From assembly GCA_965215185.1 (NCBI GenBank), contig OZ244034.1, positions 1,088,001 to 1,152,000 on the forward strand: 64,000 nucleotides of DNA, given 5' to 3'. A model generated the notes under the pieces. It did not search any database and was not told where the DNA came from. It saw only the letters and a list, made by a program, of their open reading frames with translations. This DNA comes from Acidimicrobiia bacterium (lineage in GTDB: Bacteria; Actinomycetota; Acidimicrobiia; Spongiisociales; ZC4RG35). Position numbers and translations under genes: made by a program. Below are positions 7,513-22,342 of the stretch, one piece after another (position 1 is the stretch's first letter; every line of letters begins with the position of its first letter).

Positions 7513-7619
7513 CGGTTTCGGAATTGGCCAGAAGTGGTTTCAGAATTTGCTGAAAGTGGTTTCACCGGCCTGTTCGCGCGATGCTGTGACCTGGGGCGTT
7601 GTGGTTTCGCGCCAGCGCC
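7513..7619 (-). repeat. Isolated copy of the DDE-element end
   Basis: GTTTC at 7515, 7537 and 7559, followed by GATGCTGTGACCTGGGG...GTTTCGCGCCAGCGCC. Confidence 0.7.
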
Positions 7620-7841
7620 GACCCAACAGGGCCTCTCACACGATCACAGAATACGTGTCCGCCAAACCGGGGGAACTCCATTACCACTCCACCCTTTCAA
7701 ATAGGCGGTTCAACCGCAAGCTCCTTCTTTGCAGCCCAACCCTACGGTAGTTGATCCTTTCGGGGTGGTTCCGGTGCGTTGGTGGTGTGATGTGAGTGCG
7801 GTGGTCAATTACTGAGGTTCCCCTAAGTCTCTACCAAACCC

Positions 7842-7971
7842 ACTCATACTGATAGGGGTCCCTTGGCCGGGGCGGGTCTGACCCATACCAAACCTGGCTT
7901 TTGCCTTTGCCCGATCTGTCGGCCTGTTTCCGGCTGAGGGATTGTTCACCGACCCGTGGGCGGATGTGACC
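7842..7971 (+). ncRNA. Truncated IS110 left end / bridge RNA with the target-binding loop only (element C)
   Basis: Highly similar to the reverse complement of 10800-10932; interrupted by an IS3 inverted repeat at 7972. Confidence 0.8.
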
Positions 7972-8025
7972 TGAACCGTGCCGATGCTCCTAGGATGCTC
8001 CTATTTTTGTCAAATCGAGAGCATC

Positions 8026-9252
8026 CTAGATATTCGCAGGGTTTTGTTGGGTGAGCCATTGTTGGTATTGGGTGGCGAGGTGGTGGTTGTGGTATAGGCC
8101 TCGTTCGAGTTGGGAGATGCGGTTGGGGTGGGTTTGGAGGGCGGTGGCGGCGTGGGTGAGGGTGGTCTGTGTGTGGTGGCGTTGGGTGCGTAGGAGGGCG
8201 CCGTTGGGTGTTGGTGGTGGGTTGGTGAGCAGGTGGTAGATCTCTCGGGCGATGTGGCGTTTTAGGCAGCGGATGATCTCCCGGCGGGTTTTGCTCTCGG
8301 TTTGGCGGCGGTGGGTGTATTCGATGGTGGGTTGATGGCAGCGCATCCGGGTGGTGGCGATACGCCATAAGGCGTTGTTGGCTTGGCGGTCGCCGCCTCT
8401 GTTGAGCCGGTGGCGTATGGTCTGCCCGGAGGAGGCCTGGACGGGACTGGCGCCGCATAATGCTGCGAAAGACGCTTCGGTGGTCAGGCGTTTGGGGTTG
8501 TCTCCTGCTGTGACCAGCAAAGCGGCGGCCGTGTCAGGACCGACACCCGGGGCGGAGAGCAGCGCCGGGTTGGCTCGGGAACAAAGACGAGTGATCTCTT
8601 TGTCGAGTTCTTTGATCTCGGTGGTGAGCGCCTGGCAGCGGCGCGCCAGATAGCGCAGTGTTTTCTTGGCGACCGTGGTGGTGGTATCGGCTGTGCCGGG
8701 ACGAAACCCGGCACAGGCTCGGATCCGGGCTTTGGTCGACAGTCCCCGGAGTTGGTGTTTGACCTGCTCGGGAGCGGTGACCACTAGGGCGTGGAGTTGG
8801 TTGATGGCCTGGGTGCGGGCTTTGATTGCGGAACGGCGGACTACCCGCAACATCCTGATTCCCTCGACCAGTCCGTCGGCGGTTTTGGGTCGGGCGGTGG
8901 CTTCACCGTTGAGAGCGGCCCGCCCGGCGGCTTGGGCGTCGGTGGTGTCGGTTTTTCCCAGTCGGCGGCGCAGCTGACGGTTGGGACGGTTGACTTCTAC
9001 CACCTCGATACCGATCCCGGTGAGATAGCGGGTCAGGCCGGCGCCGTAGCTGCCGGTGCCTTCCACCCCAACCCGCACCACACGACCCTGGGATCTCAAC
9101 CAGCCGCCCAGTTCCTCAAAGCCGGTTGCATCGGCCGGGAACGGAGCGGTTCCCAGGACTCGACCGGCGGTGTCCACTGCCGCCGCGACATGACAATCGC
9201 GATGGGTGTCCACCCCGCCAAACACCTCGACCAGGCTCTCTTTTTGTGACAT
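8026..9252 (-). CDS. IS110-family DEDD recombinase with a C-terminal XRE-like HTH
   Basis: GGVDTH, GVEGTG, GKTDTTDA, QASSG, RGGDRQAN; tail LRTQR...TLTHAATALQTHPNRISQLERG. Confidence 0.95.
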   Translation of the reverse strand: MSQKESLVEVFGGVDTHRDCHVAAAVDTAGRVLGTAPFPADATGFEELGGWLRSQGRVVRVGVEGTGSYGAGLTRYLTGIGIEVVEVNRPNRQLRRRLGKTDTTDAQAAGRAALNGEATARPKTADGLVEGIRMLRVVRRSAIKARTQAINQLHALVVTAPEQVKHQLRGLSTKARIRACAGFRPGTADTTTTVAKKTLRYLARRCQALTTEIKELDKEITRLCSRANPALLSAPGVGPDTAAALLVTAGDNPKRLTTEASFAALCGASPVQASSGQTIRHRLNRGGDRQANNALWRIATTRMRCHQPTIEYTHRRQTESKTRREIIRCLKRHIAREIYHLLTNPPPTPNGALLRTQRHHTQTTLTHAATALQTHPNRISQLERGLYHNHHLATQYQQWLTQQNPANI

Positions 9253-9483
9253 GAATGTCTTCTTCTTCCTTGGATAGACTCGCGGGTATCACCGGACCGG
9301 AAGCGGTGGACAGAACACTCATGATGGTGTGGAGAAGCAAGGCTCCTATAAGGTCACATCCGCTCCCGGGTCGGGGAGTGTCCCCAGGCCGAAAGCAGGC
9401 CGACAGATCATAGATAAGGCACAAACGGCCAGTTTGTCAAGGGGTCAGACCCGCCCCGACCAAGGGACCCCACCATTATGAGT
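9253..9483 (-). ncRNA. Bridge RNA region of IS110 A
   Basis: Guide segments at 9432-9440 (left target), 9407-9413 (right target, 6/7 match), 9342-9349 and 9316-9322 (donor). Confidence 0.8.
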
Positions 9484-9488
9484 GTTTG

Positions 9489-10703
9489 TCAAATCGAGTT
9501 TTGTGTGGTGATCCATTGTTGGTATCGGGTGGCGAGTTGATGGTTGTGGTATTGGCCTCGCTCGAGTTGTGATAGGCGTATTGGGTAGGTGTGGAGGGCC
9601 TCGGCGGCGTGAGCGAGGGTTGTTCGCGTGTTTTTGCGTAGACAGCGCAGATGGGCGCCGTCGGGTGTGTCCGGTGGGTTGGTGAGCAGCCTGTGGATCT
9701 CTCGGGCGATGTGACGTTTGAGGCAGCGGATGATCTCGCGACGGTTTTTGCCTTCTGTTTGTCTTTTTTGGACATAGGCGATGGTTGGCTGGTGGCGGCG
9801 CATGCGGGTGGTGGCGATCCGCCACAGGGCCTGGTTGGCCTGGCGGTTCCCGCCGCGGTTGAGACGGTGCCGGACGGTACGTCCCGAGGACGCTTGGACA
9901 GGGCTTACGCCGCACAGAGCAGCGAAAGAGGATTCTGAGTGCATGCGTTCGGGGTTGTCGCCTGCTGCGACCAATAACACCGCGGCGGTGTCGGCGCCGA
10001 TCCCGGGGGCGGCCAACAGTGCCGGGTTGACCTGGGCGCAGAGATGGTTGATCTGGGTGGTGAGTTCTCCGATCTCTGCGGTGAGGGTCTGGTATCGGCG
10101 GGCCAGGGAACGCAACGCCGCTTTGGCGTATCTGATGGTGGTGTCGGCTGTGCCTGGGCGGAAACCGGCGCAGGTCTTTACGCGGGCTTTGGGAGAAAGT
10201 CCTCCAAGTTGGTGTCTGACCTGGTCGGGAGCGGTAACAATCAGGGCGTGCAGCTGGTTGATGGCCTGGGTTCGGGCTTTGGTCGCCGAACGGCGGGCCA
10301 CCGTGAGCATCCGTATTGCTTCTACTGGACCGTTACCGCTTTTGGGCACTGCGGTGGCCTGTCCGCTGAGAACCGCCCGAGCCGCGGCTTGGGCATCGGC
10401 GGTGTCAGTCTTGCCCAACCGGCGGCGCAACTGACGGTTTGCACGGTTCACTTCCACCGCCTCCATGCCGATACTGGTGAGGTGGCGGGCCAGACCGGCG
10501 CCGTAGCTGCCGGTGCCCTCCACCCCGACTCGGACCACCCTGCCGTGGGACTGTAGCCAATCGCCCAGTTGCTCATAACCGGCCGTGTCGACCGCGAAAG
10601 GGGCTGTTCCCAGGACTCGACCGGTGCTGTCCACCACCGCTGCCACATGAACATCCCGATGGGTGTCCACCCCACCAAACACATCTACCTGACCTACTGA
10701 CAT
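9489..10703 (-). CDS. IS110-family DEDD recombinase (element B) with a C-terminal XRE-like HTH
   Basis: Same motifs as element A; its TGA stop overlaps the right-end TTGACA. Confidence 0.95.
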   Translation of the reverse strand: MSVGQVDVFGGVDTHRDVHVAAVVDSTGRVLGTAPFAVDTAGYEQLGDWLQSHGRVVRVGVEGTGSYGAGLARHLTSIGMEAVEVNRANRQLRRRLGKTDTADAQAAARAVLSGQATAVPKSGNGPVEAIRMLTVARRSATKARTQAINQLHALIVTAPDQVRHQLGGLSPKARVKTCAGFRPGTADTTIRYAKAALRSLARRYQTLTAEIGELTTQINHLCAQVNPALLAAPGIGADTAAVLLVAAGDNPERMHSESSFAALCGVSPVQASSGRTVRHRLNRGGNRQANQALWRIATTRMRRHQPTIAYVQKRQTEGKNRREIIRCLKRHIAREIHRLLTNPPDTPDGAHLRCLRKNTRTTLAHAAEALHTYPIRLSQLERGQYHNHQLATRYQQWITTQNSI

Positions 10704-10932
10704 GATTCCTCCTACTCGGAATATAATTCGGGCTGTTCACCAGACCCGCTGGCGGATGGACAACACACTCATGGTGGTGGAGAAGCAAGGCTCCTATCAG
10801 GTCACATCCGCCCACGGGTCGGTGAACAATCCCCCAGCCGGAAAACAGGTCGACAGATCGGCACCAAGGCACAAAACCAGGTTTCATAAGGGTCAGACCC
10901 GCCCCGGCCAAGGGACCCCTATCAGTATGAGT
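10704..10932 (-). ncRNA. Bridge RNA region of IS110 B
   Basis: Guide segments at 10880-10888 and 10857-10864 (target), 10790-10797 and 10766-10772 (donor). Confidence 0.8.
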
Positions 10933-11150
10933 GGGTTTCATAGAGGGTTGGTTGTTTGTGTAATTGGGGGTTTGATCGGGTTGGTTTGATGGTAGTTGGT
11001 TTCGTGTTCGGCGGGGGTGGTGTAGGTGGTATCTGGGGTGATTCCGCGAGGGTGGCGAAGGTGGTGTGGTCAAGGTCTCGCCAGGGTCCCCGGTTGCGGA
11101 TCAGTTCAGTTTTGTATAGACCGATGGTGGTCTCTGCCAGGGCATTGTCA

Positions 11151-11529
11151 AAGCCTCTATGAGTTTTCTCAGGTCAACAACCACGAAATGGGTGTGCTGG
11201 TTGACAGGAGTCAGTCCAGGGACCTGTACATGCAGATCTACGACGAGGCGATGAGGATTGTACGCCTGAGCGACGAAATCCGGGTCAAGGTTGCCCGAGT
11301 ACCGAAAGCACCCGTCGAGGATCCCCGACCCGGTGAGGCTCCCACCTGTCCAAAGTGCAACGAGACCATGGTCGTTCGCACAGCCAGGAAAGGCGCCAAC
11401 AAGGGCGAAACCTTTTGGGGGTGCTCCACCTTCCCCAAGTGCTGGGGCATGAGGCCTCTTGAAACTGCCCAAGCTGCCCCAAAGACCCCTTCCCGACGTG
11501 GGTTCCGTTCCCGACGGAAACGTTCTTAG
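11151..11529 (+). pseudogene. 5'-truncated gene: PLD-like C-terminal piece plus topoisomerase-type C4 zinc ribbon
   Basis: LYEFSQVNNHEMGVL...CPKCNETMVVR...FWGCSTFPKC. Confidence 0.65.
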
Positions 11530-20878: not shown

Positions 20879-20976
20879 TGAACCGCGCCGGGTTTGGTAG
20901 AGGGTTTGGTGGTACCCGACTTTGGTGGAGTCGGGTTATTTGAATTGGTGGTGTGACTGACCCGGAAGGAGTCTTC

Positions 20977-21285
20977 ATGCCTTATCGATATCCACCCGAG
21001 TTCCGTCGCAGGGTGCTGGATCTGCTGGCAGTTGGCAGGTCGGTAGCGTCGTTGTCAGCGGATCTTGGGGTGTCTGATCAGACGATCTACAACTGGCGGC
21101 GCCAAGACCGAATCGACCGCGGTCTACAACCGGGTGCCACTTCGGAGGAACAGGCCGAACTGTGGGCCGCTCGCTGTCGGATCGTCGAGCTGGAAACCGA
21201 ACTGGCCGTGACCAAGCGGGCTATTGAACTGCTGGGAGACCAGGTGGTGCACCTCAAAGACGCTACCAGGCGATCCGGACCATGA
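20977..21285 (+). CDS. IS3-family OrfA
   Basis: MPYRYPPEFRRRVL...LGVSDQTIYNWRRQ HTH. Confidence 0.85.
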   Translation: MPYRYPPEFRRRVLDLLAVGRSVASLSADLGVSDQTIYNWRRQDRIDRGLQPGATSEEQAELWAARCRIVELETELAVTKRAIELLGDQVVHLKDATRRSGP

Positions 21286-22153
21286 GAACCGAAGGGCTTC
21301 CCAGGTGGCGTGTCGAGTGCTCGAGGTGTCACAGTCCGGGTTCTACGCCAGGGTGGTCCCGGCCGCCGTCAGCCCGCTTGCATCCGCCACGCCTGGTTGA
21401 CCGACGTCATCTGTCACATCCATGAACAGTCACGCGGCACCTATGGGGCGCGGCGGGTGCACGCCGAACTGCGGTTGGGTCATGGAATAACCGTCGGACA
21501 CAACGCAGTAGCGATGCTGATGCGCAGAGCCGGTCTAGCTGGTCTTAGTAGGTGACCGAAGTCCCAGACGGCGGACCCGCCCGGTGGACACGCCCGGTGG
21601 ACCTGGTCGACCGTAACTTCGCCCGTTTCGAACCGGACCAACTGTGGGTGACCGATATCACAGAGCATCCCACCCGGCAAGCGCAAGGTGTACTGCGCGG
21701 TGGTGCTGGACGTGTACGGGCCGCCGGGTCGTCGGCTGGTCGATCGACAACACGGCCACCTCCGGACTGGTCACCTCCGCGTTAGGTATGGCAATCGGGA
21801 ACCGCCAACCCGACCCCGGCACGGTCATACATTCGGACCAGGGCACCCAATTCACCTCCTGGGCGTTCACCCAACGGGCCCTCGAATCCGGTCTGGTTCC
21901 GTCCATGGGAACCGTCGGGGACTGTTTCGATAACGCCACCATGGAATCGTTTTGGGCTCGTATGCAGGTCGAGCTGTTGGACCGCAGGAGGTGGAGGACC
22001 CGTATCGAACTCGCCAACGCTATCTTCGAGTACCTAGAGATCTTCCACAACCGCCACCGGCGCCACACCGCACTGGAAATGCGCACCCCCATCGAATACG
22101 AAAGAAACCACAACAACAACCTAACCATCGCACCACTGATCCAAGTGAGCTGA
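21282..22153 (+). pseudogene. IS3-family OrfB, multiply frameshifted
   Basis: YGARRVHAEL, LWVTDIT, HSDQGTQF, DNATMESF. Confidence 0.85.
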
Positions 22154-22342
22154 CTCCACAAAACCGGGGGACCATCACTCTATGAATCCCGGTACGGTTC
22201 AGGGGGTTGGTTGTGGCGCGGGTGGGGTTTATGTGAGGTTTTGAGGGGCTGGATCTAGGGGTTTTGGAGTGTGGGCCGCGGTGATCCAGGGCTTTTGGGT
22301 GTTTGGCCCGCGGTGATCTGGGGCGGGGTGGTTTTGGGGTGT

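Follow-up and report, generated by a model that had tools for sequence, protein, structure and literature searches.

What leads an insertion sequence to settle inside the end of its own relative? The question is raised by two IS110-family insertion sequences, here called A and B, which lie head to tail on the same strand in a stretch of 64,000 nucleotides (nt) of DNA (the window; G000:C1:1088001-1152000) from a genome assembled as a single 3.12-Mb contig. G000 denotes the window's own genome, coordinates are window positions unless marked as genome (C1) positions, and A and B are read on the minus strand. By right end (RE) we mean the right end of an IS110-family element, described as a 9-mer (positions 1–9) followed by an 11-nt tip. 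A splits the RE of B directly after TTGACAAAC, 11 nt from the B tip, and the same nine nucleotides stand as the left target guide in the bridge-RNA-like leader of A. We consider it very likely that A is a bridge-RNA-guided insertion sequence whose target loop is written for the conserved right end of its kin.

Element A lies inside the right end of element B

The left end of A begins with ACTCATAATGG..., its first base being 9483, and its right end reads ...TTGACAAAAATAGGAGCATC (8013..7994), also given as ...CGATTTGACAAAAATAGGAGCATC up to 7994. The left end of B opens with ACTCATACTG... at 10932, and at the B-to-A boundary ...CTCGATTTGACAAAC (9492..9484) is followed directly by A, placed co-directionally 5 nt past the B stop codon. 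Removal of 7994..9483 in silico joins TTGACAAAC to CTAGGAGCATC and yields a normal 20-nt end with nothing duplicated. An earlier note on this DNA had held that excising A rebuilds an end of B parallel to A's own end; the rebuilt end indeed shares its 20-nt layout with TTGACAAAA + ATAGGAGCATC of A, and also with the consensus of 31 kin REs from this genome and its relatives (CGATTTG-N6-ATAGGAGCATC). Its readings that A's own end departs from the guide at position 9 (A vs C) and that B retains an outer end are likewise borne out, the 11-nt tip and the right target being intact. Where it had A targeting the -35 box of B, the guide does cover the -35-like hexamer, whereas the crossover falls 3 nt downstream, in the promoter spacer.

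A and B share 75.7% nucleotide identity over ~1450 nt and 74% protein identity. Since they are only ~76% identical, the pair is neither a duplicated nor a collapsed repeat. Both proteins carry the two IS110 Pfam domains (PF01548 and PF02371) nearly end to end and well above the curated cut-offs, and a phmmer search of the A protein against solved structures gave no match at E 0.001. The motifs GVDTH, VEGTG, KTDTTD and ASSG in the translation resemble what we take to be the catalytic set of residues. Non-coding leaders of 231 nt (A) and 229 nt (B) precede the open reading frames (ORFs). The element ends (ACTCAT... and ...GCATC) do not form an inverted repeat, and there is no multi-base target duplication.

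Table 1 Features of the A–B locus and its immediate surroundings (window positions)
Feature	Position	Strand	Basis or remark
Element A, complete IS110-family insertion sequence, 1490 bp	7994..9483	-	Boundaries set by comparing the rebuilt B end with 31 homologous kin right ends
A transposase/recombinase ORF, 408 aa	8026..9252	-	Pfam DEDD_Tnp_IS110 E 4e-23, Transposase_20 E 3e-20
A bridge-RNA-like leader, approximate limits	9294..9468	-	Two long hairpins with an internal loop in each; seen in the consensus fold of 15 kin left ends and when A is folded alone
A left target guide TTGACAAAC	9432..9440	-	5' arm of first internal loop; 9/9 match to left flank 9484..9492
A right target guide UCUAUG	9409..9414	-	3' arm of the same loop; reverse complement C+ATAGA
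Donor-side guide-like AUAGGAGC	9342..9349	-	Second hairpin; equals 8 nt of own right tip; conserved in 15/15 kin leaders
Donor-side guide-like AUGAGUG	9316..9322	-	Second hairpin; reverse complement of C+ACTCAT (tip C + left-end start)
A own RE 9-mer TTGACAAAA	8005..8013	-	-35-like hexamer 8008..8013; A at position 9 vs C in guide
Left half of A's target, B RE 9-mer TTGACAAAC	9484..9492	-	B stop codon TGA (9489..9491) falls within the -35-like hexamer
Right half of A's target, severed outer tip of B CTAGGAGCATC	7983..7993	-	Read directly and compared with kin ends
Element B body; 1460 bp including tip 7983..7993	9484..10932	-	ORF 9489..10703, 404 aa; guide TATGAAACC at 10888..10880
B left target TATGAAACC+C, inner part of IS3-family-like terminal inverted repeat	10933..10942	-	Empty copy of the site, genome 1545653
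B right target GGCACGGTTCA, last 11 nt of that IS3-like inverted repeat	7972..7982	-	Comparison with IS3-family copies
Remnant of IS3-like host of B, C-terminal transposase fragment and inner repeat	10943..11173	-	Weak BLASTP E 0.003 to rve ORF of 20879..22201
Element C fragment, 130 nt, left end with guide TACCAAACC	7842..7971	+	~92% identical to B left end

The leader of A probably reads both halves of the target

Leaders of the kin share one layout. About 45 nt in stands a conserved GGTCTGAC, then a variable block whose last 9 nt come before TGG, then a small hairpin and a second variable block before GATCTGTCG. In the consensus fold of 15 full leaders, the two variable blocks occupy the 5' and 3' arms of one internal loop in a long hairpin. 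The guide of A, at 9440..9432, stands in the context CCCCTTGACAAACTGG. For IS621, PMC11208160 describes a left guide written in the same sense as the left flank and a right guide that reverse-complements the right flank, crossover base included; read by this rule, the right guide of A fits the consensus kin end (C+ATAGG) at 5/6. In the second hairpin, AUAGGAGC and AUGAGUG are invariant in all 15 leaders and hence show no covariation. The match of AUAGGAGC to the right tip (7994-8004) stops 3 nt before the end of the tip, a register different from that of the target loop. An Rfam scan of 7600..11100, with E up to 1, returned no family for the leader.

The correspondence between guide and flank extends across the clade. 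Across 22 distinct element/flank pairs, drawn from G000 and relatives, the 9-mer before TGG matches the left flank at a mean of 7.64/9 (at least 8 positions in 15/22 pairs, all 9 in 8/22), and 0/2000 permutations of guides among flanks reached that mean. The right guides, compared with the tip C plus 5 nt of right flank, average 4.67/6 in 12 cognate pairs against 2.59 in non-cognate pairs. The match in this clade exceeds chance, measured from a raised baseline: non-cognate left guide/flank pairs already average ~4.9/9, and the guides of the clade share A/C-rich 3' halves.

Insertion into kin right ends recurs

No second full copy of A was found in G000, which holds fragments only. A left-end fragment at genome 2341230 matches A 1-446 at 98.9% identity and carries the A guide, with a flank ending in ...GCGATTTGCAAAAC; a more distant kin stub at genome 909141 has the guide TTTGCAAAC and the right guide of A, with a flank ending in ...CTCGATTTGCAAAAC. 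Both left ends come directly after ...GATTTGCAAAAC. At genome 1612692, a right-end fragment 99.4% identical over A 1112-1441 is followed by the RE remainder ATAGGAGCGTC. Together with the intact element, 3/3 left and 2/2 right A-type junctions in G000 lie in kin REs at the same position and in the same orientation. The site of the A lineage is fixed in all junctions found: after RE position 9, 11 nt from the tip, always co-directional.

Among 40 relatives, no copy of A above 78% identity was detected; none of the claims made here draws on the unpublished genome G027. The pattern of an RE tip followed by an RE remainder gave 10 matches in 5/17 genomes of the genus, none in the family's other genera (184 genomes) and none with a reversed control pattern. 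Clear nestings make up 4/6 of the matches outside G000 (one in G015, one in G003 and two in G002, one of these a triple nest); the two in G011 are less clear and come from second-subfamily IS110 ends that precede ATAGGAGCTCA. A left-junction pattern, searched within the genus, identified in G003 a kin end ...CCGATTTGCAAAAC followed by 20 nt of left end and then ATAGGAGCATC, and in G011 an A-like left-end stub behind a kin RE. Most of its matches with one mismatch were unrelated sequence and were set aside.

A further case from another assembly is L065, a contig of a metagenome-assembled genome (MAG) labelled Candidatus Spongiisociaceae (Acidimicrobiia). Here a kin transposase 3' end running to ...CCGATTTGACAACC (the junction is also given as ...GATTTGACAACC) is followed by an element with the guide TTGACAAAC and the right guide UCUAUG. 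The scan for the guide context that produced it covered one genome per species and gave three matches in genome contigs, with L065 the only informative one: L066 is a chance match to the context, and L064 has the guide in a rearranged left end. The two matches of a guide-pattern scan in metagenome contigs were without IS110 features and were discarded as chance. In all, four further species of the genus and one Acidimicrobiia MAG hold nesting remnants, and unoccupied ends reading exactly TTGACAAAC + ATAGGAGCATC exist in G003 and G015.

The earlier note had taken A to be programmed to hit the right ends of kin, an idea that copies of A elsewhere, outside IS110 REs, would have undermined. The opposite was found at every A-type junction in G000, and the 9/9 guide and the nestings in other species agree with that claim.

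A candidate base for sparing the element's own end

Position 9 of the target is C for most elements; it can pair with the G at which every right guide ends, and it is also the last base of the element's own tip (...ATC). Both target guides read this base and the donor tip has it too, so position 9 acts as the crossover base. A 2-nt core of the IS621 kind was considered and rejected, because in most elements target and donor do not agree on the base preceding the crossover C.

A's own donor arm consists of the same 11 nt that lie rightward of the target crossover, so on a circle of A a target would stand at a distance of 11 nt from the donor site. Since the target of A overlaps the donor arm and nearly equals A's own end, A needs a way to spare that end. 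The A at position 9 of its own RE most likely serves this purpose, by preventing recognition of that end as a target. PMC11208160 describes core pairing by both guides as 'strongly preferred' in IS621. All five TAGGAGC-type RE-resident ends have A at position 9 (5/5), and the other 26 TAGGAGC-type ends have C in 21, A in 3 and G in 2; a sixth nested end (G003, L032), with a spacer one base shorter, was left out of this count. Self-avoidance by mismatch had been suggested earlier, and the correlation (5/5 A vs 3/26) strengthens the suggestion short of proof. Counting against it, A at position 9 is also found in three ends outside REs, two nested second-subfamily ends in front of ATAGGAGCTCA keep C, and the five RE-resident ends with A may share one ancestor or lineage.

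A proposed mechanism and the mobility of the tandem

From the anatomy of the locus, the guide/flank rule of the clade and the recurrent nesting, all of them observed, we infer a recombination event of the following kind. A circle of A, with ...GCATC joined to ACTCAT... at its junction, would recombine with the right end of B, its left guide reading TTGACAAAC (the -35-like hexamer plus 3 nt) and its right guide reading the next C+ATAG-like bases. Crossover at the C of position 9 would place A co-directionally, 5 nt behind the B stop codon and 11 nt from the B tip. The -35 of B would then be cut off from its tip, and an outer-tip circle containing B would be left without a junction promoter. An A-only circle would keep its own promoter, and closure at the A tip would provide the B left end with a replacement -35. 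On this reading the clade as a whole homes on the ends of mobile elements and on genes, B/C-type elements on the tips of IS3-family inverted repeats, with the A lineage shifted to the REs of kin.

Junction promoters computed in silico from the element ends are consistent with these steps. The junction of an A-only circle gives TTGACA-17-CATAAT (11/12), and that of a B circle with restored end gives TTGACA-17-CATACT (B left end 10932). No comparable promoter appears in a B+A circle closed at the outer tip of B; in a circle closed at the A tip, the -35 of A stands at the right spacing for the B left end. In the integrated region, a simple scan detected neither a promoter-like site on the minus strand nor, between the B ORF and A, a terminator-like one. 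Because the B stop codon lies inside the -35-like hexamer and A starts 5 nt later, read-through transcription from B into the A leader is possible, as judged from this arrangement.

That A and B might move as one unit, as the earlier note had raised, is only a possibility. Excision substrates bind across both loops according to the description in a 2026 Nature paper; on that model the guides of B still find the B left junction and the outer tip plus GGCAC, so unit mobility is conceivable. The occurrence of one A-B copy and one B in all data searched weighs against it.

Alternative origins and contrary observations

The alternative that survives best is that the tandem was produced by the resident element's own machinery, through recombination at a donor half-site (a 'half-match') or local expansion, with the target guide of A playing no role. 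The boundaries of expanded IS110 loci are described as enriched for one-sided matches to host donor ends, with growth by repeated local insertion (10.64898/2026.08.14.744561), half-matches are reported to be sufficient for IS621 recombination (10.64898/2026.08.31.748434), and the boundary between A and the B tip carries the donor-arm motif, ATAGGAGCATC and then CTAGGAGCATC. However, a donor-arm crossover should fall at the B tip itself instead of 11 nt further in; the target guide of A agrees with the left boundary at 9/9 positions; and insertions with this position and orientation are found at independent sites and in other species. We therefore regard this origin as improbable.

An assembly artefact, or a tandem duplication that has since diverged, appears very improbable. 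The region is rich in repeats, public short contigs break at both junctions, and whole IS110 modules are reported to be duplicated in tandem (n=437, with at least 95% identity between units; 10.64898/2026.08.14.744561). A and B, by contrast, are far below that identity at ~76% and carry different guides, the genome is one contig, and the boundaries can be placed to the exact nucleotide and give back a normal 20-nt end. A-like sequence at 99% identity or more occurs in the public contig sets X1, X5, X7 and X12, with record 15 of X12 reaching just 28 nt into B. One X7 contig joins 7992 to 9483, skipping 1490 nt, the length of A; its shorter side is 21 nt at a likeness threshold of 90, a combination flagged as unreliable, so that its joint, which reads as an uninterrupted TTGACAAAC + ATAGGAGCATC-type end, is a hint only. 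Other joints in public contigs link homologous parts of A and B or of kin and look like contigs from related elements. Short and breaking at the junctions, the public contigs give neither support nor doubt for the tandem.

A one-off chance or off-target insertion, with the 9-mer identity a coincidence of shared family sequence, gains something from the A/C-rich 3' halves of the guides, the non-cognate mean of ~4.9/9 and the 8/9 resemblance of the A guide to A's own end, and is very improbable in view of 0/2000 permutations reaching the observed mean, the placement of all A-type junctions in kin ends and the agreement of L065 from another assembly.

Several observations weigh against the preferred reading, in which A was guided into the kin end by its own bridge RNA. 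The right guide of A fits B at only 4/6 (C+CTAGG), B having CTAGG where ATAGG is expected, and the other two A-type left junctions in G000 match their guides at only 7/9 and 8/9. Near-perfect targets stand empty in the same genome (ATGACAAAC+ATAGGAGCATC at 943886 and TTGCAAAAC+ATAGGAGCATC at 371081), as do eight TTGACAACC ends. Related copies are non-independent. Just one intact A is present, so its current activity is conjectural; no circle, transcript or empty B site occurred among the sequence data examined, and none of the public contigs listed in the comparison with the region spans either junction with 31 nt on both sides. Within the clade, L002 (G011) and L006 (G002) match their flanks at just 3/9, indicating that guide and site can uncouple, for example by recombination between copies. 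L002 occupies a site used by ACTGAAATC-guided elements of G000, which suggests that left-end segments were exchanged between copies after insertion.

Nested surroundings of the locus

B itself was inserted 11 nt from the tip of an IS3-family-like inverted repeat. An empty copy of its site, TATGAAACC+C followed by GGCACGGTTCA, is present at genome C1:1545653-1545673, in the right tip of a 1.3-kb element with inverted repeats TGAA(C/T)CG.... An extra C at the start of some left ends was rejected, the empty site at 1545653 assigning that C to the target. The 80-aa fragment in the remnant of the IS3-like host had no Pfam match, and its IS3 identity follows mainly from the terminal repeat that it has in common with a Pfam-confirmed IS3-family copy. 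That copy, at 20879..22201 in the window, is assigned to the IS3 family by its HTH_Tnp_1, HTH_21 and rve ORFs. Both of its repeats are unoccupied; the left one matches the C guide TACCAAACC at 9/9 and the right one the B guide at 8/9.

The fragment of element C ends where the IS3-like repeat tip begins, and its left flank, ...TCTACCAAACC+C, is repeat-like sequence that matches the C guide at 9/9. The locus is thus a four-deep nest on a repeat-like site: C, the IS3-like element, B and A. B/C-type kin sit in the tips of IS3-family repeats, and empty copies of the same sites exist. Other kin in G000, at genome C1 3012713 and 3102726 and with right flanks at 1322627, 990410, 3014191 and 3104200, share a target in which ...CACTGAAATCC is followed at the junction by GATGAGCC...; this looks like a further repeated sequence, possibly a mobile-element end.

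Other insertions directed at kin

A second IS110 subfamily, with ~44% protein identity to A, is represented at genome C1 2343681-2345153, 978243-981100, 371690-372808 and 1665808-1666942, among others. Its right end reads ..TTGGAGATCATAGAAGCATC and its left end starts with CTGTGAGTATT. A-family kin with the guide AACTCAACC (e979 type) are inserted in the second-subfamily transposase ORF at the GDRQLN codons. Guides of the second subfamily match, in turn, the QANNA codons of the A family (7/9), the opposite strand of the DNA for the A-family bridge-RNA donor loop (9/9, 8/9 and 8/9) and also the A-family right end. In G007, the element L005 (G007:C68, ~856), with the guide GCCTGAAAC, is inserted in the IRCLKR codons of a kin element at 9/9; its junction joins ...CGCTGCCTGAAAC to GCTACATC, the right guide expects C+GCTAC, and both guides match perfectly.

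One second-subfamily copy, at genome C1 ~978220-981060, is flanked by AATTTGAC left and right. The ATAGG that its right guide expects stands 4 nt further on, and the copy does not fit a simple single insertion.

That the genus carries a network of IS110 elements with bridge RNAs aimed at one another's functional DNA is a tentative proposal, which we hold to be less likely than not. If such targeting were adaptive, it would amount to RNA-guided competition or hyperparasitism among insertion sequences, with the attacker sparing itself through a single crossover base in its own end.

Comparison with known systems

In a literature search, no paper was found in which the bridge RNA of an IS110 element is directed at kin right ends; the search covered text outside supplementary target-site tables, which may list such cases. 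The systems nearest to A include IS621 and the IS110 group as described by Durrant et al. 2024 (PMC11208160). A shares with them the DEDD + Tnp recombinase, the non-coding leader of ~230 nt before the ORF, the two hairpins with internal loops, the guide strand rule and, in silico here, a promoter split across the circle junction with its -35 in the right end and its -10 in the left end. It differs in that the A protein has no sequence match to any solved structure, only one C is common to target and donor at the crossover, and its natural target is a kin right end and not a host repetitive extragenic palindromic (REP) sequence.

Insertion into the terminal repeats of other elements has precedents cited in PMC11208160, namely IS1383 in the inverted repeats of IS1384, and IS4321/IS5075 in those of the Tn21 family. 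As there, insertion here is specific in position and orientation inside another element's terminal repeat, and B does the same in an IS3-family repeat. In contrast to the cases as cited, the prey of A is its own family, and the target overlaps the prey's junction promoter and donor arm.

The expanded IS110 loci of preprint 10.64898/2026.08.14.744561 likewise consist of head-to-tail modules at one locus, with donor-end motifs at internal boundaries. The units described there are at least 95% identical and are attributed to resident machinery, whereas here a 76%-identical element carries a matching target guide. The preprint also states that the IS110 family lacks target immunity; the change at the crossover base of A, with its possible self-sparing effect, is a candidate for just such immunity. 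Pairs of this kind are natural specificity experiments for the engineering of bridge recombinases, since they bear on which single mismatches would block recombination and on whether a donor arm could also serve as a target half-site.

Host repeats are known targets of bridge RNAs, and so, in a few instances, are the ends of unrelated transposons. The kin right end targeted here is the stretch that holds both the -35 of the junction promoter and the donor arm, and IS110 elements may parasitise or disable their kin, beyond using neutral landing pads. RNA-guided IS110 elements that target the ends of mobile elements were known already; what is new here is a natural guide aimed at the family's own right end.

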